Source: a phage
Direction: 5' to 3' (one strand)
Sequence record: PZ445537.1
Length of the DNA: 45,054 nt
The notes under the pieces: generated by a model
Databases searched by the model: none
What the model saw: only the letters and a program-made list of their open reading frames with translations
Told to the model about the DNA's origin: nothing
Part shown: positions 19,310 to 40,813 of the stretch, piece by piece
Numbering within the stretch: position 1 is the first letter of the stretch
How the letters are laid out: each line of letters starts with the position of its first letter
Translations under genes and position numbers: made by a program

Positions 19310-20131
19310 AGCGCCACAGCCAACTTCGGAAGCCTCGAGATCGGAGCCAAAAAACCTTCTTCAGCAAGCTTTGTTGATTTCCATTTTCTTGGCACCAACG
19401 ACTATGACGCGCGCATCCTGTGTGGTGGTAATTCTAATGGTGCCATGGGGAAAGGGGACTTCACTTTTTACGCGGGGAAATACGTTTTTATCGGCGATAG
19501 CTTTGAGTTTCGCAACCCCATTACCTGTCAAAATAGCATCAGCGCATCTGCAAAAATAGCGACCACTGCTGATATGGAATGCAAAACTAAAATCGCTGTT
19601 TTGGCACCGGCTGACAATCAAAATGCCCATGTATGGTTCTATGGCACAGGTGGGGCATCCAGGGGGGTTATTTATTCCGGGCAAACAGGAATTATTCAGA
19701 TCCGTCCCGACAATAATGATAACGGCGGCTCCAACGGATACTCTTTTGCATTTGGGGCCGATGGTAAGTTTACCTGCGTCACGATGAACCAGACCTCAGA
19801 TGAGCGAGTAAAATTCGATAAAGAGCCCGTCAGTAACGCTCTGGAGAAGATTTGTTCCCTGACGGGTTATACGTTCGGCATTCAGCTCACAGAATCTGAG
19901 TCGGTACGTAGCGCAGGCATCATCGCACAGGAACTGGAGCAGGTTCTGCCGATCGCTGTGAGTTCTGGCGGCACCGGAACAACACCTGCAGGAGAGGAAA
20001 TTAACGATCTCAAAACCGTGGACTACAGCGCAATGAGCGCCCTCTACGTTGAGGCAATCAAGGAATTAACCAACCGGTTGAAAAGTGTTGAGAGCGAACT
20101 TACTGCAATACGTGACCGCTCAAACGCTTAG
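19301..20131 (+). CDS. silent tail fibre distal cassette B with C-terminal intramolecular chaperone (S74-like) domain
   Basis: 276 aa counted from TTG inside S4; no RBS or ATG; frame opens right at the crossover site; C-terminus has the self-cleaving chaperone signature (SDERVKFD...GIIAQELEQVLPIAV...VDYSAMSALYVEAIKEL). Confidence 0.7.
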   Translation: MGDSATANFGSLEIGAKKPSSASFVDFHFLGTNDYDARILCGGNSNGAMGKGDFTFYAGKYVFIGDSFEFRNPITCQNSISASAKIATTADMECKTKIAVLAPADNQNAHVWFYGTGGASRGVIYSGQTGIIQIRPDNNDNGGSNGYSFAFGADGKFTCVTMNQTSDERVKFDKEPVSNALEKICSLTGYTFGIQLTESESVRSAGIIAQELEQVLPIAVSSGGTGTTPAGEEINDLKTVDYSAMSALYVEAIKELTNRLKSVESELTAIRDRSNA

Positions 20132-20781
20132 TTTCTTGTCTTATCTTCTAAAGCCCCGACGCGGATTGCCAGGGCTTTTATCGCGGCCAGCGCATCGAGC
20201 AACATGGGGGTCTGGTCGAGATGCAGCAGGCCGCCAATATCTTTGACGTATTCAGGGTCGATAGTTTCAATCTGCTGAGATATCACCCCGCGCCGTGGGG
20301 TCTGCGTTTCATCATCCTTAAAAGTGAAGTGTTTGAACTCCATCCGTGAAATGTTGCCCAGCGCCTCTTCTGGATCGAGGTCGTCACCAATATTTTTCAT
20401 AATTCTGTCTGAAACTGCAGACGTCATTATCTCCTTCCATGGGCTCCATGTATCAGTGTTGTAACCCCTGAAAAAAAACCTTCCCGCATCAGTTTTGTTG
20501 GCATACGGCAAGCAGAACTGCGTCAAGGCTACATCAGGAATACGAACATAATTTTGAACATACCCATACCAGCTGGTGATAGGTCCTGAAGTTGATTTCG
20601 CCATATCTAACAGCAAACGATATGTACCAGGTTCAGTCAGGGCATTGAAATTTGTCCCGTCAGGAGCAACTGCCATATCTGTTTTAAAGGCTCTGGCATC
20701 ACCAGTTGGCAACCCGAATGCCCCCACCTGCATGACGTTCCCGGCTGCGCCGCCTGCATCCAGCGTGGCGCTACTTCCCAA
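20128..20781 (-). CDS. silent tail fibre distal cassette C (inverted) with chaperone-like C-terminus
   Basis: 217 aa on the minus strand beginning inside site S2 (GLGSSATLDAGGAAGNVMQVGAFGL); C-terminus resembles an S74-type chaperone domain (SDRIMKNI...GVISQQIE); stop codon overlaps cassette B's stop tail to tail. Confidence 0.7.
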   Translation of the reverse strand: MGSSATLDAGGAAGNVMQVGAFGLPTGDARAFKTDMAVAPDGTNFNALTEPGTYRLLLDMAKSTSGPITSWYGYVQNYVRIPDVALTQFCLPYANKTDAGRFFFRGYNTDTWSPWKEIMTSAVSDRIMKNIGDDLDPEEALGNISRMEFKHFTFKDDETQTPRRGVISQQIETIDPEYVKDIGGLLHLDQTPMLLDALAAIKALAIRVGALEDKTRN

Positions 20782-20798
20782 ACCGACCTTTATTCACC
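20773..20798 (-). other. invertase crossover site S2 (inverted relative to S1)
   Basis: Minus-strand sequence GGTGAATAAAGG-TC-GGTTTGGGAAGT; 23 of 26 nt identical to S4. Confidence 0.7.
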
Positions 20799-21527
20799 TT
20801 CATCCGTAGTCATTGCCAGTTCTGTGGCCCTGAGTTTTTGGTTGTACAAAGAATCGGCAGGCATCTCGACACGGACGGACAAAAACTGGTCATGGGGGAT
20901 ATCGACCGGATCGCCATTGTTGATACCCAGCAGTTCGTTCCTGGCGAACGCTGGCGCGTCAGGATACGTGCGGTGAAAGGTTTTCACCAGCACCGAGCCG
21001 TCAGCGTTAACCTCATAATCCAGCCAGATCAGCGGCTGCTTGTTACGGTCTGTAGGAATGTCAAAACCGCCATCGATTCCGCCCCAGGCTGCGTCAGAGT
21101 TCAACCCTTCACACCCTTCGATAAGATACTGCCCTACGTCCAGACGGATGACCTTTATGCCTTCGGATTCATCATTGGTTTGGTATGCACCATCCGAAAA
21201 TACTTTCACCACAGGCGATGCTGCTTTCAGTGTGCCATCGCTGGCCCTCGTGGTATTGCCCGTGGTGTAAGCCTCCTGATATGACCAGGACGTGCCACCG
21301 TAATACGAAAACCACGTCCGCCTTAGAATGTAGGCCTGATGAATACGGGTTGGTCGGCTGCCCCGATTGACGACTATAGACGTAATACCGGTATTTGCAG
21401 TTAACCCGAGCTGGGTCTGTCCGTCATTTTGATGGGAGGAGAAACAGGTCGGTGTAAATGCGTCCATAGCGTCCAACAGTGGGCCGTCTCCGTTGATAGT
21501 TCCAAGCCCAAATGCGCCCACTTGCAT
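20790..21527 (-). CDS. silent tail fibre distal cassette D (inverted)
   Basis: 245 aa from ATG 21527; the same frame stays open upstream to site S3 (…LGSSATKDVGTTAGNIMQVGAFGL); C-terminal ~130 aa (NDESEG…DEGE) nearly identical to cassette A, forming a long imperfect inverted repeat. Confidence 0.75.
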   Translation of the reverse strand: MQVGAFGLGTINGDGPLLDAMDAFTPTCFSSHQNDGQTQLGLTANTGITSIVVNRGSRPTRIHQAYILRRTWFSYYGGTSWSYQEAYTTGNTTRASDGTLKAASPVVKVFSDGAYQTNDESEGIKVIRLDVGQYLIEGCEGLNSDAAWGGIDGGFDIPTDRNKQPLIWLDYEVNADGSVLVKTFHRTYPDAPAFARNELLGINNGDPVDIPHDQFLSVRVEMPADSLYNQKLRATELAMTTDEGE

Positions 21528-21566
21528 GATGTTCCCGGCAGTCGTTCCGACGTCCTTTGTCGCGCT

Positions 21567-21592
21567 ACTTCCTAAACCGACGTTTTATAGAT
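21567..21592 (-). other. invertase crossover site S3 (inverted relative to S1)
   Basis: Minus-strand sequence ATCTATAAAACG-TC-GGTTTAGGAAGT; right half plus next 6 nt (GGTTTAGGAAGTAG.GCG) identical to S1; preceded by an in-frame TAA. Confidence 0.75.
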
Positions 21593-21657
21593 TGCCCTGG
21601 GGCAGCCTGGCCGATAACGTCACCTGATTTTTTCTTACAAAAAGGTGACTAAAAAAC

Positions 21658-22212
21658 ATGCAATATGGGTATGCAAGGGTATCAACTTTTGACCAAAATC
21701 TTGAATTACAGTTAGAGGCGCTAAATCGGTCAGAATGTGACCAGATATTTGAGGATAAAATATCCGGAGCGAAGTCAAAACGTCCTGGCCTGGATAAGAT
21801 GATGAAGTTATTGCGGCCAGGTGACACCGTCATCGTCTGGAAGCTAGACCGGCTCGGTCGATCACTCATACACCTCGTCGATTTACTGCGCTATTTCCGG
21901 GCTAATAATATTGAATTTGTCTCAATCACTGAGGGAATAAGGATCAGCACGTCAATCGGCAGATTCGCATACACAATGTTGAGTGCTGCGGCTGAGATGG
22001 AAAGAGAAAATATTATTGAAAGAACAAGGGCAGGTTTAGCCGTGGCAAGGGCAAAAGGGAGAATAGGTGGGAGGCGTCCAAAGTTAACACCAGAACAATG
22101 GGCGCAGGCTGGGAGATTAATATCAAACGGCGTGGATAGAAAACAGGTGGCAATAATTTATGATGTGGCTGTATGCACGCTTTATAAAAAATTTCCGGTG
22201 GGGCAGGCTTAA
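21658..22212 (+). CDS. serine recombinase, DNA invertase (Hin/Gin/Cin/Pin family)
   Basis: 184 aa; N-terminal catalytic motif YARVSTFDQ; RPGL…GDT-VVWKLDRLGRS block matches Hin as recalled; C-terminal HTH; sits just outside the invertible segment as gin/cin/pin do. Confidence 0.9.
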   Translation: MQYGYARVSTFDQNLELQLEALNRSECDQIFEDKISGAKSKRPGLDKMMKLLRPGDTVIVWKLDRLGRSLIHLVDLLRYFRANNIEFVSITEGIRISTSIGRFAYTMLSAAAEMERENIIERTRAGLAVARAKGRIGGRRPKLTPEQWAQAGRLISNGVDRKQVAIIYDVAVCTLYKKFPVGQA

Positions 22213-25493: not shown

Positions 25494-26246
25494 TTATATT
25501 TCAAATGCCATTTGAGGCATGAAACGATCACGATCTGCGTCGTACTGCAATGAGCTGGCACTGTTGTATGCCTCTATGCGCTCAACCAGAACCGCTGCTC
25601 GTGTTTCTTTGCTTGCAGGCGCGTAGGCTGATTTATCCCATGCCTTGTCGATGCCAATATTGCGCGCCACGTTTGTACTGTCAGCTGACGACAGCGGGAT
25701 GTGACGGAATATATCGGCGTTAAGCATGCGCAGGCCATGAAGCTTTGTTATGGGGTAACCATTATTGTCGACAACATGCCGTATAAGATCTCGCAATTTT
25801 GCCCTGCATGAGCGTGGACGTTTCGCGTCGTATTCACCCATGCTACCGATGCATACCCTGGGGAATTCATGGCATAAGCGGATGAAACGCTCGTCAGGCT
25901 CGTTGAAGTGGTAAACTGGCGCGCCGACAACCTTACCGTGCGGCCATTCAGCTATTAACGCATCATTCTCTTCACTGGTCCCGCCGATCACGTCAGGGAT
26001 AACAGCAAAAGCAAAGCGCGGGTGATTCAACCAGCGGCCCACAAACTCGTAGTAATCATTCCAGTTAACAACGCGCTTTTTTGTCCAGAAGCTGAATGCG
26101 CCGTTATCCAGCGCAAAAGACTGGGTGACTTCGCTTGCAAGAGCTAATTGACCTGGATTAGCGAAGGAAATAAAAGCGTGCCTGCCTTTCCACGCCTTCA
26201 GTGCGCATGTATCAGGGGTTATTGGCCCGCCGTGAAAATGTATCAT
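25494..26246 (-). CDS. conserved hypothetical phage protein
   Basis: 250 aa from the ATG in ATGA overlap with the upstream TraR-like gene (track ORF extends to 26303); no motif recognised. Confidence 0.55.
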   Translation of the reverse strand: MIHFHGGPITPDTCALKAWKGRHAFISFANPGQLALASEVTQSFALDNGAFSFWTKKRVVNWNDYYEFVGRWLNHPRFAFAVIPDVIGGTSEENDALIAEWPHGKVVGAPVYHFNEPDERFIRLCHEFPRVCIGSMGEYDAKRPRSCRAKLRDLIRHVVDNNGYPITKLHGLRMLNADIFRHIPLSSADSTNVARNIGIDKAWDKSAYAPASKETRAAVLVERIEAYNSASSLQYDADRDRFMPQMAFEI

Positions 26247-29803: not shown

Positions 29804-30499
29804 TTATCCGTGCCGTTTAACAGACTGCGACTGGCTGATCATTACCTTGCCGAAAACGTAAAATCTGTCTTCATTGGACTTATCCACTGACCACTCCCGA
29901 TATTTAGGGTTATCGGAAATGACAAGAATTTTATCTGGGATCATCTGTAATCTTTTGACATAAATTTTATCATCAAAACCAAATACATAAATCCCATCAC
30001 CATCAAACTCATTGATCGAAATATCAACGAATATCAAATCACCTGGTTCAATGGTATCAGCCATGCTGTCACCACGAACGTTAATCACTTTGACCGTATC
30101 TGGTGTTCTCCCACCAAATAATACGGCGGCTCTTTCGTTGTTGTACTCAATGGACCTGATGACATCGACGACATCACTACCTTGTATATGGCCCATGCCA
30201 GCACTGGCGCTGACATCGAGCAACTCGACTCTAAACACAGGGTCACCCTCTCCATAAGCTGGATTTTTACCACTGGATTTACATACAGTAGTTTCATTTG
30301 GAGACGGTGTAAAGAGTTCTGCCACGCTAACACCAAGTGCCTTAGCATATTTGCTAAGCGATTGTTCAGTAAATGACTTTTGTTTTCCAGTCTCAACCCG
30401 TGAGACGTTCGCACCGTCAATACCTACAGCTTCAGCAAGATCTGAAATTTTCATGCCCTTTTCGAGGCGTAATTCTCTAATGCGGTTTCCTATGTTCAT
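29804..30499 (-). CDS. cI: CI-like repressor (HTH plus S24 LexA-type autopeptidase)
   Basis: 231 aa; N-terminal HTH; Ala-Gly cleavage site (SASAGMGH); catalytic GDSM and downstream Lys (VKRL); divergent from cro. Confidence 0.9.
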   Translation of the reverse strand: MNIGNRIRELRLEKGMKISDLAEAVGIDGANVSRVETGKQKSFTEQSLSKYAKALGVSVAELFTPSPNETTVCKSSGKNPAYGEGDPVFRVELLDVSASAGMGHIQGSDVVDVIRSIEYNNERAAVLFGGRTPDTVKVINVRGDSMADTIEPGDLIFVDISINEFDGDGIYVFGFDDKIYVKRLQMIPDKILVISDNPKYREWSVDKSNEDRFYVFGKVMISQSQSVKRHG

Positions 30500-30517
30500 G
30501 CGTCCATTACAGGTTGT

Positions 30518-30581
30518 TTTTGCGTGATATGCAAAGCAACTTGCGCAAGTCGTAACTACACATTAATATGCGTAATACGCA
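30518..30581. promoter_or_regulatory. OR-like operator cluster between cI and cro
   Basis: Three dyads in the 97-bp intergenic region: TTTGCGTGATATGCAAA (30518-30534), ACTTGCGCAAGT (30537-30548, perfect palindrome), TGCGTAATACGCA (30569-30581). Confidence 0.6.
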
Positions 30582-30596
30582 ATTACAGGGGGCGTT

Positions 30597-30860
30597 ATGC
30601 AATCACCGTTAAGAAATTTGCGAAAATCGCAAGGGTTAACTCTCTCTCATGTGGCAAACGTGGTGGACATTGATCCAGCCAACCTAAGCCGAATTGAAAG
30701 AGGTCAACAAATCGCATCACTCGATGTAGCTGAAAGGCTCGTGAAGTTTTATTCGGGCCAAATTGATGAGCTCCAAATCTTGTACCCGCACCGTTATACG
30801 CAGGCTACAGAAACTGGGGCAGCATCGGTACCACAGGAAAAAGGGGAAAGCCGTGGGTAA
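30597..30860 (+). CDS. cro: Cro-like HTH repressor
   Basis: 87 aa with XRE-type HTH (QGLTLSHVANVVDIDPANLSRIERG); first gene rightward of the operator cluster. Confidence 0.8.
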   Translation: MQSPLRNLRKSQGLTLSHVANVVDIDPANLSRIERGQQIASLDVAERLVKFYSGQIDELQILYPHRYTQATETGAASVPQEKGESRG

Positions 30861-31401
30861 CGAACCGGAATGGAAAGTTGATAAGCAGCCAGCCTGGCTG
30901 GTGGCCGCAATCAAAAAAACGATCACCGAGCTGCCTGGCGGATATTCAGAAGCTGCTGAGTGGTTGGGTGTGACCGAGAACGCGCTGTTTAACCGGCTAC
31001 GAACCGACGGTGATCAGATCTTCCCGCTCGGTTGGGGGATGGTGCTTCAGCGTGCTGGTGGTTCAAACCACATAGCGAACGCTATTGCACGTCACTCGAA
31101 CGGTGTTTTTGTGCCATTGGCTGATGTTGAAGAGATTGAGAACGGCGATATCAACCAGCGTCTCATGGAGTCAGTTGAGTGGATCGGCAGGCATTCGCAA
31201 TACGTTCGTAAAGCCACCGCTGACGGCGTTATTGATGCTCAGGAACGCGCCCAGATCGAAGAGAACAGCTATCAGGTGATGGCTAAGTGGCAGGAACATT
31301 TGACGCTGCTTTTCCGTGTGTTTTGCGCGCCGGAAAAGAATGACGCCCGCGAGTGTGCAGCTCCGGGCGCCGTGGCAGACAAATCTTGTATGGAGAAGTA
31401 A
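30853..31401 (+). CDS. CII-like regulatory protein (CP76-type)
   Basis: 182 aa from GTG 30853 with RBS GGGGAA (the track ORF from 30763 overlaps cro); position after cro; family by recalled sequence. Confidence 0.55.
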   Translation: MGNEPEWKVDKQPAWLVAAIKKTITELPGGYSEAAEWLGVTENALFNRLRTDGDQIFPLGWGMVLQRAGGSNHIANAIARHSNGVFVPLADVEEIENGDINQRLMESVEWIGRHSQYVRKATADGVIDAQERAQIEENSYQVMAKWQEHLTLLFRVFCAPEKNDARECAAPGAVADKSCMEK

Positions 31402-31573
31402 TCCGCATGACCAGTTTAACGGCTTTTAACCGTTTACCGCAACTCAGGATGATCCCGGTACCGGGCGCTCCGTTGTTTCGGTATGAACGCAGAATAGCAA
31501 ACCGCTGGGTGCCATGTAACCACAGTCGGGCGGTCGCAATTGTGGGGGTTTACTACAGGAAGGCGAAACGCTT

Positions 31574-31753
31574 ATGCGCGAAGTTAACCGAAGGTTCAAA
31601 GACCACAGAGGGATCCCCGTTCGGGTTATCAGGTGGGAGCCAGAGACTCAACGAGTTATCTACCTGCGGGACGGTTATGACCACGAATGTTTCAGCCCGC
31701 TCGAACAATTCAAGCGCAAGTTTACAGAGTTAAAGGACGACCATGAGCACTAA
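31574..31753 (+). CDS. small conserved prophage protein (DUF4222-like)
   Basis: 59-aa ORF missing from the track (under the size cut-off); protein-like sequence MREVNRRFKDHRGIPVRVIRWEPETQRVIYLRDGYDHECFSPLEQF; stop overlaps the O-like start (ATGAGCACTAA). Confidence 0.45.
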   Translation: MREVNRRFKDHRGIPVRVIRWEPETQRVIYLRDGYDHECFSPLEQFKRKFTELKDDHEH

Positions 31754-32597
31754 ATTAACGGGTTACGTTTGGGACGCTTGTGCCGCTTCTGGCATGAAGC
31801 TGTCCAGCGTTGCCATCATGGCGCGTCTGGCTGACTTCAGCAGTGATGAAGGGGTTAGCTGGCCTTCCATTGCTACCATCGCGCGCCAGATTGGTGCTGG
31901 TGAGAGCACGGTTCGCACAGCCATATCACAGCTGGAAAAAGACGGTTGGTTAACCCGCCAGCAGCGCCGTAAAGGCAACCGAAATGCATCGAACGTTTAC
32001 CAGCTCAATGTTGCGAAATTGCAGGCTGCTGCCTTTTCTCACCTGTCAGATTCTGACGCATCAAAATCTGATGCCTCAAAAACCGACGCGTCAATATCTG
32101 AGGCATCAAAAAACGATGAGAAAGGCGGTTTTCACCCGTCAGAATCTGGGGGGGATCCGTCAGTAAATACAACTACTGATCCATCAGTTAAAAAACCTTC
32201 TTGTCCGGTTGCGCCGCAACCAGACCCTGAAGTGACGATCACCGATAACGCCATCCTGGTTCTGAATCATTTGAACCTGGTTAGCGGCTCACGATACCAA
32301 AAATCAAAAACTTCTCTGGAAAACATCCGTGCTCGTTTGCGTGAAGGTTACACCGTTGGCGACTTACAGCTGGTGATTGACCTTAAGCATGAGCACTGGA
32401 ATGGCAATGACGTGCAGTACCAGTACATGCGCCCTGAAACGCTATTTGGCCCGAAAAAGTTTGAGGGTTATCTGCAAAGCGGGATCCGTTGGGACAAGAA
32501 GGGGCGTCCACCGCGCGAAAGCTGGGGTGAAAAGAAACACGATCCGATGAAGTTCGGTCCGGTTGATACCAAGATTCCAGAGGGGTTCAGAGGATGA
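31743..32597 (+). CDS. replication initiation protein (O-like; N-terminal HTH, conserved phage C-terminal domain)
   Basis: 284 aa; N-terminal winged-HTH segment; serine/aspartate-rich linker encoded by tandem repeats; conserved C-terminal block (GYTVGDLQLVIDLKHEHWNGN). Confidence 0.7.
   Translation: MSTKLTGYVWDACAASGMKLSSVAIMARLADFSSDEGVSWPSIATIARQIGAGESTVRTAISQLEKDGWLTRQQRRKGNRNASNVYQLNVAKLQAAAFSHLSDSDASKSDASKTDASISEASKNDEKGGFHPSESGGDPSVNTTTDPSVKKPSCPVAPQPDPEVTITDNAILVLNHLNLVSGSRYQKSKTSLENIRARLREGYTVGDLQLVIDLKHEHWNGNDVQYQYMRPETLFGPKKFEGYLQSGIRWDKKGRPPRESWGEKKHDPMKFGPVDTKIPEGFRG
32052..32111 (+). repeat. four tandem 15-bp iteron-like repeats (putative origin) inside the initiator gene
   Basis: TCTGACGCATCAAAA / TCTGATGCCTCAAAA / CCGACGCGTCAATAT / TCTGAGGCATCAAAA, each with internal dyad TGA-GC-TCA; encode the SDASK-repeat linker, as lambda ori iterons do within O. 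Confidence 0.55.
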
Positions 32598-33928
32598 ATG
32601 AAAATAAATACTGCCGCGCGCTGGCTGAACTGCGTTCAAGACCAGCCCACGAGTTGAAAGAGGTCGGCGATCAATGGCGCACTCCGGATCTGTTGTTTTG
32701 GGGTATCAATGCGATGTTCGGCCCTCTGGTGTTGGACCTTTTTGCCGACGACAGCAACGCGAAGTGCCCAGCATGGTATACGGCTGAAGATAATGCCCTG
32801 ACGCAGGATTGGTCAGAGCGTCTGGCAGAACTCGGTGGTGCCGGGTTTGGCAACCCGCCTTACAGCCGCTCTCAGTACCACGACAAGCAGGCCGTCACCG
32901 GAATGACCCACATCATTAACCACGCTATGGCAATGCGAGAAAAGGGTGGTCGGTACGTTTTTCTCATTAAGTCTGCGACGAGTGAAACGTGGTGGCCGGA
33001 AGAGGCAGATCACGTCACATTCATCCGTGGCCGAATTGGTTTCGATCTTCCTACATGGTTCGTGCCGAAAGACGAAAAGCAGCAGCCCACCAGCGCATTT
33101 TTTGCTGGCGCTATCGTGGTCTTCGACAAAACATGGCGGGGTGAGCGTTTCAGTTACATCAACCGTACCGACCTGGAGGCCAAAGGCCGTGCTTCGATGT
33201 TGCTGGCCCAGTTTGCAGTGGGAAGAACGCAAACTGATGCGGCGCCGGAGCTTGATGCTGAGGTAGTGCCGGAGAAATTAGAGGCAGAACTGCCATTAAC
33301 CCAAAAAGCCATTCTGGAAACCAGTGGTGTTGAGGCTTGGGCCTGTGTTGTCGCGGCGTTCGGCGAGAAAGATGAGTACACCTTCAGCGAGTCAAAGTTT
33401 GGTCATACCTGGGCTGCCGACTCTTTGGAAGACCCTGAATTTACCAATGTTTCACCGCTGACGATCGACAGAGCGAAAAAGCTGATCAGCGAGAGCATCC
33501 TGGTGGGTGTTAATGCATGGCTGGAAACATTGCGCTTTGATAGCGATGACGTGAAACAAGACATATCAGAGCGGTTACGCACGGTTGCCGTTGAGTCTGC
33601 GAAAGAATACGGCATTAACCACAGTGAATTCATCGCGACCATGGAAAGCCTGGATAAAGCCAAATGGTCAAATATTCGGGGGATCCGCGCCCATGTCCGT
33701 GAGACGCAGGAATCAAAGGACAAGGCGTTAAACGAATCGCGCGTTTGGCCTCTTGAGGTTGGACTGGTGTTTAACCAGATTGAAGGGGCTGACGCTCTAC
33801 CTGTTTCACAGCAGAACAAGCTGAAAGCCAATATCAACCAGCTGTGGCTCGAACGTATGCCGACGAGTGAAATTATCACGACCGCTGGTGGTCTCTTCAA
33901 CAGCATGCAGGGGGCCGTCAATGCGTGA
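32594..33928 (+). CDS. DNA N6-adenine methyltransferase (phage Dam-type) with C-terminal extension
   Basis: 444 aa; catalytic motif GNPPYS (DPPY-type) in the N-terminal half; C-terminal ~230 aa of unknown function. Confidence 0.8.
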   Translation: MNENKYCRALAELRSRPAHELKEVGDQWRTPDLLFWGINAMFGPLVLDLFADDSNAKCPAWYTAEDNALTQDWSERLAELGGAGFGNPPYSRSQYHDKQAVTGMTHIINHAMAMREKGGRYVFLIKSATSETWWPEEADHVTFIRGRIGFDLPTWFVPKDEKQQPTSAFFAGAIVVFDKTWRGERFSYINRTDLEAKGRASMLLAQFAVGRTQTDAAPELDAEVVPEKLEAELPLTQKAILETSGVEAWACVVAAFGEKDEYTFSESKFGHTWAADSLEDPEFTNVSPLTIDRAKKLISESILVGVNAWLETLRFDSDDVKQDISERLRTVAVESAKEYGINHSEFIATMESLDKAKWSNIRGIRAHVRETQESKDKALNESRVWPLEVGLVFNQIEGADALPVSQQNKLKANINQLWLERMPTSEIITTAGGLFNSMQGAVNA

Positions 33929-35858
33929 AATTATCGTTGATAACTTTGCTGGTGGCGGCGGCGCGAGTACCGGCATTGAACTGGCGATCGGGCGTAGCGT
34001 GGATATCGCTATCAACCACGACGAAAACGCTATTGCTATGCATAAGACGAATCACCCTGACACGCTGCATTATTGCGAGTCGGTGTTTGACGTTGACCCA
34101 AGCGCAGCCACCAGCGGTAAACCTGTCGGCCTGGCCTGGTTTAGCCCTGACTGCCGCCACTTTTCCAAAGCGAAGGGCGCTAAGCCAGTTAAGAAAGAGA
34201 TCCGCGGGCTGGCGTGGATTGTCCTGCGCTGGGCGCTGGCAGTACGTCCCCGAGTCATGATGCTGGAGAACGTCGAAGAATTTAAGACATGGGGCCCGCT
34301 GCTCGATGAAGAATTACGCCCGGATCCTGAGCGTGCTGGTGAAACATTCGAGGCATTTGTCGGCATGCTGTCGACTGGTATCGCGGCGAATCACCCAGCA
34401 CTGGCTGAGGTTTGCGAATTTCTTGCCATTGAGCCGCACGGCCTGCAGGCGCAACAGCTGACCGCCGGGCTTGGCTATGAGGTCGATTATCGTGAGCTGC
34501 GCGCTTGTGACTACGGCGCGCCGACGATCAGAAAGCGTTTCTTCATGGTCATGCGCTGTGACGGCCGCAAGATTCATTGGCCTGAAGCGACTCATGGGGA
34601 TCCAAAATCACTGGAAGTACAAAGCGGCAAGCTGGCGCCATGGCGTACCGCGGCGGAGTGCATTGACTGGAATATCCCGGCCCGGTCCATCTTCGATCGC
34701 AAAAAGCCGCTGGCGGAAAATACGCTCAAACGTATCGCGCGCGGCATCCAGCGCTTTGTTATCGAAAGCGCATCACCTTTCATCGTGAAGTGTAACCACA
34801 CCACGACGAAAGGAGGTTATGACTGTTTCCGCGGGCAATCGTTGTTAGAGCCATTGCAGACCATCACTAAAAAGCATGGCTACGCGCTGGCGGTACCGCA
34901 TCTTACTAAATTCCGCACTGGGGCCACCGGGCAGCCAGTGACCGAGCCGGTTCCAACTGTCACCGCTGGTACGTCGGCGCGCCCTGGCGGGAATGGGCAT
35001 GCGCTTGGCGTAGTTGAGGCCGCCCTGACACCGTTCCTGGCTGGCAATGGCGGCAGTGAGTACCAGGCAAAGCCGCGCCCACTGGATAAACCCGCTCATA
35101 CAGTCCTCAAGCAGTCCCGCGCGTGCGTGGTTGCGCCGGTCATCGCCCGCCAGTTTGGTGCCAGTGTTGGGCACAGGGCTGACGAACCGAGCGCGACGAT
35201 TACTGCAGGTGGTGGCGGTAAGTCGCAGCTGGTAACTCCAACACTCATCCAGATGGGGTACGGCGAACGCCCAGGGCAAGAACCGCGTGTTCTTCAACTG
35301 AATAACCCGCTCGGCACGGTCACTGCTGGTGGTAATAAGTTTGCAACGGTGAGCGCGTTCCTGGCGAAGCACTATGGTGGGAATTACACGGGGCCGGGTG
35401 TTGGTATGGATGAGCCTGCCCACTCAGTCACTACTGTTGATCACCACGCGGTAGTTGCGTCGCACCTGGTGAAGCTGCGCGGAACCTGCCGCGACGGTCA
35501 GACCATGGACACACCTATGCCGACGATTACCGCTGGTGGCCAGCACGTTGGCGAGGTCCGGACATTCCTCGAAACCTACTGCGGTGATAGCGAGGATGAA
35601 TGGCTGGTGACGATCGAGGGGGTTAAGTACCAGATCGTCGATATCGGAATGCGCATGCTTCAACCGCATGAGCTTTATAAGGCGCAGGGCTTCCCTGACG
35701 GCTACGTTATCGATCAGGACTATCGCGGCAATCGTTACGCCAAAGACAAGCAGGTAGCGCGCTGCGGTAACGCAGTACCGCCGCCGTTCGCTCGTGCGCT
35801 GGTAGAAGCAAATCTTCCTGAATTATGTGTAAATCAAAAGGCGGGTGCAGCCGCCTGA
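33921..35858 (+). CDS. DNA cytosine-5 methyltransferase with long C-terminal domain
   Basis: 645 aa from ATG 33921 (overlaps the Dam stop); motif I FAGGGG, catalytic PC (SPDCRHFS), ENV (MLENVEEF); C-terminal half has repeated T(I/V)TAGG-like segments. Confidence 0.85.
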   Translation: MREIIVDNFAGGGGASTGIELAIGRSVDIAINHDENAIAMHKTNHPDTLHYCESVFDVDPSAATSGKPVGLAWFSPDCRHFSKAKGAKPVKKEIRGLAWIVLRWALAVRPRVMMLENVEEFKTWGPLLDEELRPDPERAGETFEAFVGMLSTGIAANHPALAEVCEFLAIEPHGLQAQQLTAGLGYEVDYRELRACDYGAPTIRKRFFMVMRCDGRKIHWPEATHGDPKSLEVQSGKLAPWRTAAECIDWNIPARSIFDRKKPLAENTLKRIARGIQRFVIESASPFIVKCNHTTTKGGYDCFRGQSLLEPLQTITKKHGYALAVPHLTKFRTGATGQPVTEPVPTVTAGTSARPGGNGHALGVVEAALTPFLAGNGGSEYQAKPRPLDKPAHTVLKQSRACVVAPVIARQFGASVGHRADEPSATITAGGGGKSQLVTPTLIQMGYGERPGQEPRVLQLNNPLGTVTAGGNKFATVSAFLAKHYGGNYTGPGVGMDEPAHSVTTVDHHAVVASHLVKLRGTCRDGQTMDTPMPTITAGGQHVGEVRTFLETYCGDSEDEWLVTIEGVKYQIVDIGMRMLQPHELYKAQGFPDGYVIDQDYRGNRYAKDKQVARCGNAVPPPFARALVEANLPELCVNQKAGAAA

Positions 35859-35872
35859 TATGGAGAAATAGC

Positions 35873-36565
35873 ATGAATCAGTTAACCGCAAAGGGTGTTG
35901 TGACAATGTCCAGCCGTGAAATTGCCAGGCTGGTGAAGAGCAAACATGGTGATGTGAAGCGCTCAGCTGAGCGCCTTGCATCTGCTGGTATTTTAACCGC
36001 GCCGTTGGCGCACACCCCCTACACACACCCGCAAAACGGGCAAACCTACGAGGAGTATTGGTTCAACAAACGTGATTCTCTGGTGATCGTCGCCAGGCTG
36101 TCGCCAGAATTTACCGCCGCTGTTGTCGATCGCTGGCAAGAGCTGGAGAACAGTCAGGCCGTAAGTGTCCCGCAAACATTGCCGGAGGCATTACGCCTCG
36201 CCGCGGATCTGGCCGAGCAGAGAGAACAACTGGCCCAGCAGTTAGCCGCTGCCGCGCCGAAAGTTGAGTTTGTCGATCGGTATTGTACTGCTAAAGGCTC
36301 AATGTCTTTCCGCCAGGTGGCAAAGCTGTTGCAGGCCAAAGAGACCGATTTCCGCTTGTTCCTCATTGAGAGCGGCATTTTGTATCGGCTCAGTGGAGTG
36401 CTGACACCGCGGCACCAGCACATTGCTGCCGGGCGGTTTGAAGTGAAAACTGGCACCACGAGCGAAACAAACTACGCCTTTAGCCAGGCACGTTTTACAC
36501 CCAAAGGCATCGAGTGGATCGGCGGCCTGTGGACGGCACACATCGCTAAGGGGCATGCCGCGTGA
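35873..36565 (+). CDS. Rha-family regulator / antirepressor with KilA-C domain
   Basis: 230 aa from ATG 35873 (RBS GGAG); N-terminal Rha-like segment (MSSREIARLV…KRSAERL); C-terminal KilAC-like segment (FRQVAKLL…FLIESGILYR). Confidence 0.7.
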   Translation: MNQLTAKGVVTMSSREIARLVKSKHGDVKRSAERLASAGILTAPLAHTPYTHPQNGQTYEEYWFNKRDSLVIVARLSPEFTAAVVDRWQELENSQAVSVPQTLPEALRLAADLAEQREQLAQQLAAAAPKVEFVDRYCTAKGSMSFRQVAKLLQAKETDFRLFLIESGILYRLSGVLTPRHQHIAAGRFEVKTGTTSETNYAFSQARFTPKGIEWIGGLWTAHIAKGHAA

Positions 36566-37623
36566 GAGGACTGTTTACAGCCGAGACTGTTCCGCGCCTT
36601 GGCCTGGTGGTGTTAAAGCCGGGCAGCGAACTGATGTTTCTGTTTCAACAGGGGCGTGTGCTGGTGGAGCCTCAGCCAAAAAGCATGGCTGGGCTTCCGT
36701 CGGGGCTCGTCCCTGATGCCAGGCAGCCGCTGGCAGAAGATAAGTCCCTCGAGGAATTCTTCACTGACGAGAGAGTAATCCGTGCAGCAGGCGGTTTGAC
36801 CGCGTTGGAATCCTGGTTAGAACGTAACGTGAAGGAATGCCAGTACCCGCACACTGATTATCACCATCATGAACTGGTAACGATGCGACATCCCCCCGGA
36901 TCAATGTTGCTCTGTTGGCATTGCGATAACCAGCTGCGCGAGCAAACCACCGCGGCGCTGGCAGAACTGGCCCGGCGTAATCTCATTAATTGGCTGATCA
37001 GCTCCATCCTGTCATCGCTTGGCTATAACAACGAGCGTGAATTATCCCTCGGTGAATTGTGCTGGTGGGCCGTTTATTCAGGCATTGCTGATGCAATCAC
37101 GGAAAGGATGGCCCAGCTTGCGCTTCGATTACCGGATGAGCCGTTTTTATCCGTATATCGAGAAAGTGACATTGTGCCGATGCCCCCGGCAAAAAGCATT
37201 TTGCAGAAGAAGGTCACCCCTGCGGTCACGGCTGCGAAATTAAAGCATGGAGCAAATCAGGAAGTAGCCTATGAACAGCCAAAGGTTCTGGCTCTGCATG
37301 CGGATCCTGAATCCCCTGAATCATTCATGTTGCGCCCAAAACACCGCAGGTGGGTGAATGAGGACTATACCCGGTGGGTTAAAACCCAGCCCTGCGAAGG
37401 TTGCCGGCGGCCAGCGGATGATCCACACCATGTCATTGGTCACGGCATGGGCGGTACCGCCACTAAAGCCCACGATTTGTTTGTGATCCCTCTGTGCAGA
37501 GAGTGTCACGACAAATTACATGCTGATGTTGCAGCGTTCGAGAGAAAACACGGTACCCAGCTGGAGCTGCTATTCCGGTTTATGAATCGAGCACTGGCGA
37601 TCGGCGTAATAACAAAAGCGTAA
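36562..37623 (+). CDS. hypothetical protein with C-terminal Cys/His (DUF968-like) motif
   Basis: 353 aa from GTG 36562 (GTGA overlap; later ATG possible); C-terminal CEGC…HHVIGHGMGG…CRECH cluster suggests a Zn-binding or HNH-like module. Confidence 0.55.
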   Translation: MRGLFTAETVPRLGLVVLKPGSELMFLFQQGRVLVEPQPKSMAGLPSGLVPDARQPLAEDKSLEEFFTDERVIRAAGGLTALESWLERNVKECQYPHTDYHHHELVTMRHPPGSMLLCWHCDNQLREQTTAALAELARRNLINWLISSILSSLGYNNERELSLGELCWWAVYSGIADAITERMAQLALRLPDEPFLSVYRESDIVPMPPAKSILQKKVTPAVTAAKLKHGANQEVAYEQPKVLALHADPESPESFMLRPKHRRWVNEDYTRWVKTQPCEGCRRPADDPHHVIGHGMGGTATKAHDLFVIPLCRECHDKLHADVAAFERKHGTQLELLFRFMNRALAIGVITKA

Positions 37624-37644
37624 TTGTATGGAGCGCTGAGCATA

Positions 37645-38337
37645 ATGAATTTACAAGAACTGGAATATACGCGGATTGAACTGCGCCGCGCGCTGGTGGA
37701 TTTATCAGGATCGACAAAAGGACAGCTGCAGGCGTTCAGTGAGCATCCACCAGCAGATAAGAATAAATACCCTCGGCACCATCCTGAAATCGTCATGGAG
37801 GGTGGGGAAGGTTGTGGATCAAAGGTGGTAAAAACTCTGGCCACTCCGCTTTATGTTCTTGAGACAAGGAGCCGTCGCCGACCTTTACCGCCTATTAAGG
37901 ATACGGAGTTCGCTTGTTCAGCATGGCGTCGATCGGTCAATGGTTTGGGGGAGCATTTGCAGGCATGGGTGCGGTACTGCTATGGGCATGACCTTGCTTT
38001 CCGGTACCAGAGGTTAATGTGCCAGCACGTATGGGAAGAGTTTCAGCGTCAGCATAGCGGCAAAAAAATCCAGGACCGTGTCACTAAAAAACTGGTAGGG
38101 CTTGTCTGGCTGGCGGCGCAAGAAGTTGCTGCCTCGCGTAATAACGATACCTATCAGGAGTATGCTGGTGCAGCTCTGGCGCGCATGGTCAGCGTTGAGC
38201 GTTCCACCTGGCTCAGAGTGTATTCAGGCCACTGGGCGGCTTTCAAAGCGTCGTTTGCTGAAATGGACAGCCAGGCACTAAGCGAAATTTTGTCACGGTA
38301 CGAAGAGTACCAAGAACTGAAAGTGGCGGAAATGTGA
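37645..38337 (+). CDS. putative late-gene antiterminator (Q-like)
   Basis: 230 aa from ATG 37645 (track start 37624 is TTG); called by position only: last early gene, followed by a short promoter-terminator unit and the late region. Confidence 0.4.
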   Translation: MNLQELEYTRIELRRALVDLSGSTKGQLQAFSEHPPADKNKYPRHHPEIVMEGGEGCGSKVVKTLATPLYVLETRSRRRPLPPIKDTEFACSAWRRSVNGLGEHLQAWVRYCYGHDLAFRYQRLMCQHVWEEFQRQHSGKKIQDRVTKKLVGLVWLAAQEVAASRNNDTYQEYAGAALARMVSVERSTWLRVYSGHWAAFKASFAEMDSQALSEILSRYEEYQELKVAEM

Positions 38338-38432
38338 GGTAACTTTCACTAACTCCCTCAAATGGGCTTGCAAAATGCAACAAAATGAGTCATATTTGAA
38401 CCTAATTTGATATGTTGCTAAAAGTATATCAG

Positions 38433-39760: not shown

Positions 39761-40813
39761 ATGAAAAATACTGTAAATATAAACAGTGTTGAGCTTGTCA
39801 ACGCTGACTGCCTGCTATACCTCGCAACCCTCCCAGATAACACCATTGACCTTATTGTTACGGATCCGCCGTACTTCAAAGTGAAACCCAACGGCTGGGA
39901 CAATCAATGGAAAGGGGATGAGGATTATCTTCGCTGGCTTGATATGTGCCTCGCACAATTCTGGCGAGTGCTAAAACCTGCTGGCAGTCTTTATCTTTTC
40001 TCCGGTCACCGCCTGGCGGCAGACATTGAGATCATGATGCGTGAGCGGTTCAACGTCCTGAACCACATCATCTGGGCTAAACCGTCGGGCCGCTGGAATG
40101 GCTGTAATAAAGAGAGCCTGCGCTCTTACTTCCCTGCAACAGAGCGCATCCTCTTCGCTGAGCATTACCAGGGGCCGTATAAACCAAAGAGCGACGGTTA
40201 CGCGGAGAAGGGAAGCGAGCTGAAGCAGCATGTAATGACTCCCCTAATTTCTTATTTTCGGGATGCACGTGAAGCGCTTGGCATATCCTCAAAACAAATA
40301 GCCGATGCGACTGGAAAGAAGAACATGGTGTCTCACTGGTTCAGCGGTAGCCAGTGGCAATTACCGAATGAATCAGATTACCGGAAGCTTCAGTCCCTTT
40401 TCACGCAGGTAGCCATCGAAAAGCACCAGAACGGCGAACTGGCAACACCACACCACCAGCTGGTGGCTATGTGGCATTCGTTGAATCGCAAGTATTCAGA
40501 GCTGCTCGAAGAGTACAAATCACTTCGGCGGCATTTCTCTGTTTCCGTATCCGTTCCTTATACCGACGTCTGGACACATAAACCCGTTCAGTTTTATCCA
40601 GGTAAACACCCATGCGAAAAACCCGCTGACATGTTGCGGCAGATCATCAACGCCAGCAGTAAGCCTGGTGATGTGGTGGCTGATTTCTTTATGGGGTCCG
40701 GTTCGACCGTGAAAGTCGCGCTGGAACTTGGCCGCCAGGCTATTGGCGTTGAACTCGAAGAGGAAAGGTTTAATCAGACGATGGGGGAAATACGGGCGTT
40801 GGCAGGGGAATAA
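39761..40813 (+). CDS. DNA methyltransferase (N6-adenine/N4-cytosine, beta class)
   Basis: 350 aa; catalytic motif VTDPPYF near the N-terminus and AdoMet motif FFMGSGST near the C-terminus. Confidence 0.85.
   Translation: MKNTVNINSVELVNADCLLYLATLPDNTIDLIVTDPPYFKVKPNGWDNQWKGDEDYLRWLDMCLAQFWRVLKPAGSLYLFSGHRLAADIEIMMRERFNVLNHIIWAKPSGRWNGCNKESLRSYFPATERILFAEHYQGPYKPKSDGYAEKGSELKQHVMTPLISYFRDAREALGISSKQIADATGKKNMVSHWFSGSQWQLPNESDYRKLQSLFTQVAIEKHQNGELATPHHQLVAMWHSLNRKYSELLEEYKSLRRHFSVSVSVPYTDVWTHKPVQFYPGKHPCEKPADMLRQIINASSKPGDVVADFFMGSGSTVKVALELGRQAIGVELEEERFNQTMGEIRALAGE

Follow-up and report, generated by a model that had tools for sequence, protein, structure and literature searches.

What is the extra sequence for when two overlapping methyltransferase genes of a temperate coliphage are both much longer than their catalytic cores? 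The question is raised by the 45,054-nucleotide phage sequence PZ445537.1 (the window), a circular permutation of Escherichia phage Eeyore (PP925821.1), which was isolated from river water and is 100% identical across the region of interest. Two open reading frames (ORFs) on its plus strand encode an N6-adenine methyltransferase with two C-terminal modules (ORF A, 32594–33928, 444 amino acids) and a C5-cytosine methyltransferase of an 'SPDC' subfamily (ORF B, 33921–35858, 645 amino acids). An initial annotation gave both proteins long extra C-terminal domains of unknown function. ORF A does continue for ~245 residues after its Dam core, but these form two separable modules, and the extra residues of ORF B are an internal repeat array. 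Whole units of this array are gained and lost among natural homologues, and the last module of ORF A is strictly linked to the C5 gene. By analogy with the C5 enzymes of Bacillus phages, we favor, with moderate confidence, a reading in which ORF B is a multispecific C5 enzyme served by a dedicated partner or adaptor module.

The catalytic core of ORF B

ORF B matches PF00145 in three stretches (73.1 bits against a cut-off of 22, E = 3.6e-20). Its N-terminal catalytic part (33921–34556, plus strand) contains FAGGGG (residues 9–14), SPDCRHFS (75–82), ENV (116–118) and TIRKR (202–206), and its C-terminal catalytic part (35643–35804, plus strand) contains motif IX, RMLQPHELYKAQGFPDGY (578–595), and motif X, GNAVPPP (616–622). 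Together they would form one core, with motifs I–VIII at the N-terminus and motifs IX–X at the C-terminus. Because motifs IX–X (residues 578–622), which align to motifs IX–X of DNMT1, lie at the very end of the protein, ORF B has no C-terminal extension, and its extra sequence lies within the variable region between motifs VIII and IX (residues ~213–575). Inactivation by mutations in the catalytic motifs, which had been considered for both genes, is not what the alignments contain. The motifs are intact and invariant across the homologues compared (45 for ORF B and 46 for ORF A), and both enzymes are probably catalytically active.

The cysteine of motif IV in ORF B follows an aspartate (F-S-P-D-C-R-H-F-S). 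Of the motifs first reported for this protein, FAGGGG and ENV are present, and 'PC' has to be withdrawn, as the protein has no PC dipeptide. The SPDC motif recurs in 54 of the 76 full-length family representatives and is thus a subfamily signature and not a sign of decay. The label 'Dcm-type' holds for the C5 chemistry only, as the match to TIGR00675 (52.7 bits) is below the cut-off of 100.65. Five long members of the family (P0296, P0339, P0346, P0310 and P0379) carry intein-like insertions (CFPAGT…VHNC) exactly at the SPDC catalytic cysteine, which mark it as a conserved functional site. An optional insert of ~24 amino acids, outside the array, follows ENV/motif VI (~residue 128) in P0073, P0060 and P0014.

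Seven tandem units between motifs VIII and IX

Examination of the extensions, for which the initial annotation suggested a domain search, yielded two modules in ORF A and, in ORF B, an array of seven tandem units of 32–46 amino acids each (residues 300–559; 34818–35597, plus strand). The units R1 (34818–34916), R2 (34917–35054), R3 (35055–35156), R4 (35157–35273), R5 (35274–35384), R6 (35385–35483) and R7 (35484–35597) share the consensus G-q-…-(D/E)-P-x-x-T-(I/V)-T-A-G-G-…-V-…-L. Each unit scored better against a leave-one-out profile of the six others than 100 of 100 shuffles of itself, and pairwise E-values between units were as low as 9e-6. The listed ORF B homologues are 605–695 amino acids long, and their alignment traces the differences in length to whole units lost or gained in register. 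Homologues of 616, 609 and 605 amino acids lack units 2, 3 and 5, respectively, and those of 680 and 690 amino acids carry an extra unit.

Unit typing of 198 distinct ORF B homologues (66–99% identical, with 5–9 units) recognized seven main and four rare types. Their architectures include 1234567 (72 homologues), 12345667 (41), 123467 (26), 123456a7 (14), 124567 (14) and 134567 (8). Units 1, 6 and 7 are always kept, any one of units 2–5 can be missing, and collinear order is maintained throughout. Identity is 69–90% within a unit type and 24–46% between types. Because the first range far exceeds the second, the units are old paralogues, each kept for itself. An optional 17-amino acid insert, 'TLAVDGYDE.RAQQ.L', lies outside the array, after unit 7, in P0067, P0030, P0045 and other homologues.

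The array extends well beyond these close relatives. A search of 1.84 billion representative proteins with the unit profile returned at least 2,591 clusters (defined at 50% identity) at E ≤ 1e-3, 203 of them at E ≤ 1e-30, and the number of units ranged from 4 to 12 among the 150 clusters listed. The full-length family representatives are 27–55% identical to ORF B and agree with it in the order of their parts, from motif I through SPDC (where present) and ENV to the array and motif X. These results make the architecture a common one in nature. The 12-unit representative, used to scan a genome collection, returned two loci only (one metagenome-assembled genome). We found no description of this family, of the SPDC motif or of prophage enzymes writing 5-methylcytosine (m5C) in multiple motifs in the searchable literature.

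Comparison with multispecific and bifunctional phage methyltransferases

Tandem recognition domains that confer multiple specificities are treated as established for Bacillus phage enzymes in the discussion of PMC8936443 (its references 58 and 59), and PMC12707154 cites Trautner et al. (1996; its reference 31) for the same arrangement. Like M.SPRI, M.Phi3TI, M.Rho11sI, M.H2I and M.phiBssHII, ORF B is an orphan phage C5 enzyme by its motifs, with a single core and several tandem modules between motifs VIII and IX (in ORF B, residues 300–559). The original gene sequences of SPR, rho11s and H2 were retrieved for comparison. Successive 'G(L/V)SPT(L/I)TT.(K/M)GEG…I.V' cores occur in their variable regions, and a constant 'DEPAFTVNTIDRHGVA(I/V)G' element stands directly before motif IX; a constant DEPA..V.T.D.H element before motif IX characterizes the Bacillus phage enzymes. 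In the Bacillus modules and the Eeyore units alike, a P-T-(L/I/V)-T core (P-x-x-T-(I/V)-T in Eeyore) precedes a loop rich in glycine and then a hydrophobic strand. When ORF B was compared with M.Rho11sI by BLASTP, the top segment aligned unit R6 (DEPAHSVTTVDHHAVV) with the constant DEPAFTVNTIDRHGVA element (46% identity, E = 0.002) and was stronger than any segment over the catalytic motifs.

The two groups also differ in several respects. Pairwise similarity is almost nil beyond one 24-amino acid segment, motif IV is SPDC in ORF B and GSPCQ in the Bacillus phage enzymes, and motif VIII is TxRxR and QxRxR, respectively. ORF B has seven units and its family up to twelve, whereas we counted by eye two or three cores plus the constant element in SPR, rho11s and H2. 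Unlike the Bacillus modules, the units of ORF B are recognizably repeated sequences. Upstream of ORF B, the side on which flanking genes were covered, a dedicated 60-amino acid module is encoded, and the host range of the family is Enterobacteriaceae and beyond. Multispecificity is proven for the Bacillus phage enzymes. For ORF B it is the interpretation that we prefer by analogy, and an anti-restriction role would be common to both groups.

Phage P1 Dmt offers a second comparison, as it too couples an adenine and a cytosine methyltransferase in one early unit of a coliphage; its record lists GATC methylation and possible C5 activity. Dmt, however, is a single polypeptide of 754 amino acids with an N-terminal C5 part (canonical GTPCQ) and a C-terminal Dam of the classic DPPY type, and it has neither repeat units nor the terminal module. 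It has no significant similarity to ORF A and one marginal segment in common with ORF B (E = 0.001).

A terminal module linked to the C5 gene

ORF A ends in a terminal module of three predicted helices (residues 381–444; 33734–33925, plus strand) with the motif VWP.EV…Q.KLK..IN.LWLE…II. The module matches phrog_16025 and no Pfam family. At all of the 80 viral loci fetched through ORF B, tblastn placed it directly upstream of the C5 gene, with overlaps of 4–26 nucleotides. Whatever ORF runs up to the start of the C5 gene has the terminal module as its constant part and varies in the remainder. At about half of the loci the module is a standalone ORF of ~85 amino acids, and at the others it is fused to one of four methyltransferase types, namely PF05869, PF05063 (MT-A70), PF01555 or a Methyltransf_11-like 'DPPH' enzyme. 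As the module is always upstream of the C5 gene while the rest of its ORF changes, it belongs to the C5 enzyme rather than to the Dam core, the Dam fusion being one of several carriers.

A profile of the module retrieved 988 proteins. The best 120 of these are all standalone 'hypothetical proteins' of 71–99 amino acids that match no Pfam family and come from Klebsiella, Enterobacter, Citrobacter, Salmonella and E. coli. A standalone module gene also overlaps a C5 gene of 622–656 amino acids by 4 nucleotides in prophages of Klebsiella and Salmonella whose flanking genes are unrelated. The protein sequence of the module is conserved down to 27–50% identity, with an invariant W..EV…IN core. Furthermore, the alignment of ORF A homologues places the module in both long and short forms of the protein, and prophages with the short Dam variant keep the same gene chain, the module and the 8-nucleotide overlap with the C5 gene.

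We infer from these comparisons that the terminal module is a partner or adaptor of the C5 enzyme. It may tether or activate the enzyme, and its fusion to Dam would probably dock the two methyltransferases or be needed for C5 function. M.AquI and M.EcoHK31I are C5 methyltransferases that need a second, small product of an overlapping gene. There, the small product contributes catalytic motifs that the larger one lacks, whereas ORF B has all ten and the module has no methyltransferase motif.

The adenine methyltransferase that carries the module

ORF A scores above the cut-offs of PF05869 (148.5 bits against 28.1, E = 1.9e-43) and TIGR01712 (203.5 bits against 97.05). Its Dam core (residues 19–199; 32648–33190, plus strand) has the S-adenosylmethionine-binding motif LDLFAD (residues 47–52) and the catalytic NPPY (87–90), both of them invariant. 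The original call of an N6-adenine methyltransferase with a GNPPYS motif (residues 86–91) is therefore sound. The likeness to the PF05869/TIGR01712 family lies in this core, and Foldseek against viral models returned only the PF05869 family. The members in that listing are ~135–260 amino acids long, and ORF A differs from them in its mobile helical middle module and in its terminal module, which goes with the C5 gene downstream. GATC is the target known for tested PF05869 members. Non-specific adenine methyltransferases of the Hia5 type belong to the classic Dam lineage and not to PF05869, and were set aside as irrelevant.

The GenBank record names the product of ORF A (PP925821.1 CDS0032) 'phosphoadenosine phosphosulfate reductase'. 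We rejected this identity, as the only Pfam matches are to Dam and no domain of the reductase is present. The match to phrog_33262 covers positions 283–490 of a 495-position fusion profile, which is the Dam half. The label is thus an annotation artefact from a PHROG built on fusions of the reductase with Dam.

Between the Dam core and the terminal module lies an optional, all-helical middle module (residues ~230–372; 33281–33709, plus strand). These ~145 amino acids are missing from the common ORF A variants of 291–298 amino acids. The module shares 38% identity (E = 3e-31) with the C-terminal domain of gp48, a protein of Pantoea phage AH07 with ParB and helix-turn-helix (HTH) annotation, whose gene (L094 2625–3947) overlaps a DpdA-like gene. 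In the structural model of ORF A, the middle module is a helical bundle and the terminal module has three helices (predicted local distance difference test score, pLDDT, ~80–90); a search for structural relatives of the model gave no informative match. The sequence relationships suggest that the middle module is a mobile domain of early-region, DNA-associated proteins. A specific tie to DpdA was considered and rejected. AH07 and Eeyore have both, whereas phage Flotzy, which carries the module, is missing from the best 40 of 103 DpdA matches, where an Eeyore-like copy would rank, so that no strict co-occurrence was seen.

One homologue (P0174, 405 amino acids) is a deletion derivative in which ORF A, up to ~residue 318, is fused in frame to the last ~85 amino acids of ORF B. 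It has no terminal module, catalytic C5 core or array and is probably a dead remnant. A two-piece match of 43% in E. coli ECONIH5 (NZ_CP026202.1, 4076140–4077550) may represent this deletion too.

The gene chain and its genomic context

Three genes are chained by overlaps in the early region. The stop codon of a replication/primosomal gene (HTH_36 and Phg_2220_C; 31743–32597, plus strand) overlaps the start of ORF A by 4 nucleotides (ATGA), and the stop of ORF A overlaps the start of ORF B by 8 nucleotides (ATGCGTGA, 33921–33928, plus strand), exactly as first annotated. A Shine-Dalgarno-like run, AGGGGG, lies 7 nucleotides 5' of the second overlap. ORF B starts at the ATG at 33921 and not at the GTG at 33867 given in the ORF list, as the MREIIVDNFAGGGG start is found in all homologues and in the GenBank record. 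The order of the rightward early operon is a cro-like gene, the replication gene, ORF A, ORF B, Rha/Ant, DUF968 and Q. A simple scan of the plus strand from 30400 to 38430 found no promoter-like or terminator-like site; a strong terminator-like hairpin is located after Q. The annotated start of Ant/Rha (35825) overlaps the end of ORF B by 34 nucleotides, but its true start is uncertain, and a product starting at an alternative ATG (35873) keeps the full Rha and KilAC domains.

Of 5,426 complete E. coli genomes, 12 carry near-identical prophage copies of this region, with the two products labelled by PGAP as 'phage N-6-adenine-methyltransferase' and 'DNA cytosine methyltransferase'. The annotation of the whole 45-kb phage genome contains no restriction endonuclease, and PADLOC matched only generic methyltransferase models with no endonuclease partner, in agreement with the initial view that no cognate restriction gene lies nearby. 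The neighbors of the pair are the replication gene, Rha/Ant, DUF968 and Q, and not the partner of a type II restriction-modification system. Avoidance of palindromes in the window was seen only for CTAG and, mildly, for GGCC, and is uninformative about specificity.

Other candidate DNA-modification genes are encoded elsewhere in the window. The third orphan methyltransferase reported for the late region is there, as a PF01555 (N6_N4_Mtase) gene directly upstream of the holin gene (39761–40813, plus strand). It has a weak HTH_3 match inside the methyltransferase domain (residues 167–197, E = 0.001) and holds the same position in Enterobacter prophages (L002–L004). Three methylases may not be the full inventory of DNA modification, as the first reading did not count a DpdA-like gene (25494–26246, minus strand; the ORF extends to 26303) that matches phrog_887, 'queuine tRNA-ribosyltransferase' (E = 3e-93). 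Its sequence points to a possible fourth DNA-modification function, the insertion of 7-deazaguanine using host preQ0. The product is 66% identical to gp49 of Pantoea phage AH07, and 103 phage records contain homologues, those of SfI, BTP1 and SPN3UB among them. In the annotation table, a DNA invertase gene stands beside oppositely oriented tail-fibre genes (PP925821.1 684–2768, window ~20128–22212), an arrangement that suggests an invertible host-range switch.

A model for the methyltransferase pair and its alternatives

Self-methylation against restriction, the role first proposed for these genes, is the natural reading of two intact orphan methyltransferases plus a third, and we infer it here on the same grounds. 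In lytic growth, the early rightward operon would supply ORF A and ORF B together with the replication protein, their synthesis being coupled. ORF A would methylate adenine and ORF B cytosines in several unrelated motifs, with each of the variable units most likely directing the core to a different target. Their joint action on replicating phage DNA would allow the progeny to escape host restriction, and the late PF01555 enzyme and the DpdA-like gene may complete a broad DNA-masking kit.

Several points weigh against a multispecific enzyme with a dedicated partner. Extensive m5C exposes a phage to McrBC-type restriction and is thus a cost. Methylation data for any member of the family were not found in the searchable literature. 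The AlphaFold2 model of ORF B, built with 45 close homologues, was unusable (mean pLDDT of 43.7, and ~22 in the array), and the unit profile matched no solved structure among the PDB sequences. The scores of the unit hidden Markov model on the Bacillus enzymes were not significant, so the link to these enzymes consists of motif resemblance and one short BLAST segment. An equivalence between the units and the 'TLSAYGGG' loop of HhaI was dropped after hhalign to M.HhaI gave no alignment. A repeat array of variable length would also be expected of a single solenoid-like DNA-binding domain. As for the module, its linkage could reflect co-transfer or translational coupling and not protein contact, and the correlation of its variation with that of the C5 core (r = 0.61) is compatible with linkage and interaction alike. 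Furthermore, a distant five-unit homologue in a metagenome-assembled genome had no detectable module upstream.

The likeliest alternative, though in our view itself unlikely, is a pair of independent, ordinary orphan methyltransferases. In such a pair, ORF B would have one large recognition domain built of repeats and reading a single motif, the extension of ORF A would be an accessory domain of Dam (for example, for DNA binding), and the module and the C5 gene would travel as one recombination unit in which the 3' end of the module carries the C5 ribosome-binding site. Indeed, the Shine-Dalgarno-like sequence of ORF B is inside the coding sequence of the module, and the co-variation of the two is compatible with simple linkage. 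Pfam, NCBIfam and PADLOC give only generic methyltransferase families, and no profile match between the units and solved or characterized recognition domains was significant. However, units 2, 3, 4 or 5 are cleanly missing from many natural, intact proteins that are otherwise 80–90% identical, losses that a rigid domain would tolerate poorly. The module is also conserved far beyond what a ribosome-binding site needs, with its invariant core and as an independent ORF of 85 amino acids in hundreds of clusters, and it is fused to four unrelated methyltransferase families.

We regard as improbable a second alternative, in which the array wraps DNA like a clamp and the enzyme methylates cytosines in a relaxed or nearly non-specific manner (a very short motif), as non-specific adenine enzymes of prophages do. 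The number of units would then tune affinity or processivity and not the choice of targets. Semi-specific and non-specific orphan methyltransferases of mobile elements are known (PMC12707154; M.EcoGII, PMC5778455). A continuous range of 4–12 units among the listed clusters, the strongly conserved core of the units and their glycine-rich loops, which are typical of backbone contacts, all suit a clamp. Yet each unit type keeps a loop sequence of its own, with the contrast in identity within and between types noted above, which favors type-specific functions over spacers; collinear order and the fixed positions of units 1, 6 and 7 also speak against it.

Least probable of all is a cassette with no anti-restriction role, either regulatory (epigenetic control of phage or host genes, packaging or replication) or silent cargo: the genes do directly follow, and are coupled to, a replication gene, and prophage methyltransferases can be inactive in the lysogen, as discussed for M.BatI (PMC8936443), or predicted inactive, as for prophage-encoded M.EcoMV (PMC4659465), but silence in a lysogen is expected of early lytic genes and is no argument against a lytic role, thousands of prophages show strong conservation of both the motifs and the cassette, and three methyltransferases and a DpdA-like gene in one phage fit DNA protection.

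Implications for temperate phages of Enterobacteriaceae

An orphan methyltransferase pair is in itself ordinary for a lambdoid prophage; the internal anatomy of this one is not. By sequence comparison, its unusual features appear to be the distinct SPDC subfamily, the variable array of the recognition type and the upstream module common to four families of adenine methyltransferase. Should the array prove to be a single domain, the locus would be an ordinary prophage methyltransferase pair. More tentatively, the cassette could be a combinatorial methylation hub. Its seven recognition units (as many as twelve elsewhere in the family) would be shuffled, gained and lost so as to track the restriction enzymes of the hosts, and the 60-amino acid adaptor would dock the C5 enzyme to an adenine methyltransferase of whichever family is encoded upstream. 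We think this elaboration unlikely on present evidence, but it would imply a heteromeric enzyme that writes many m5C motifs and N6-methyladenine in one pass, and a natural collection of C5 recognition modules that are portable and far outnumber those of the Bacillus phage paradigm.

If the units are independent recognition modules, ORF B would represent a large natural series of C5 enzymes that spans thousands of clusters and is found mainly in prophages of Enterobacteriaceae of clinical importance. The specificity of each enzyme would be readable from unit content, natural deletion variants could serve as controls, and the units could become portable cassettes for engineered m5C writers. The common 85-amino acid 'hypothetical protein' and the tails on four families of phage adenine methyltransferases would gain a function. 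The idea of the multispecific methyltransferase would then reach beyond a handful of Bacillus phages, and could help explain how temperate phages cross the restriction barriers between Klebsiella, Enterobacter, Salmonella and E. coli.

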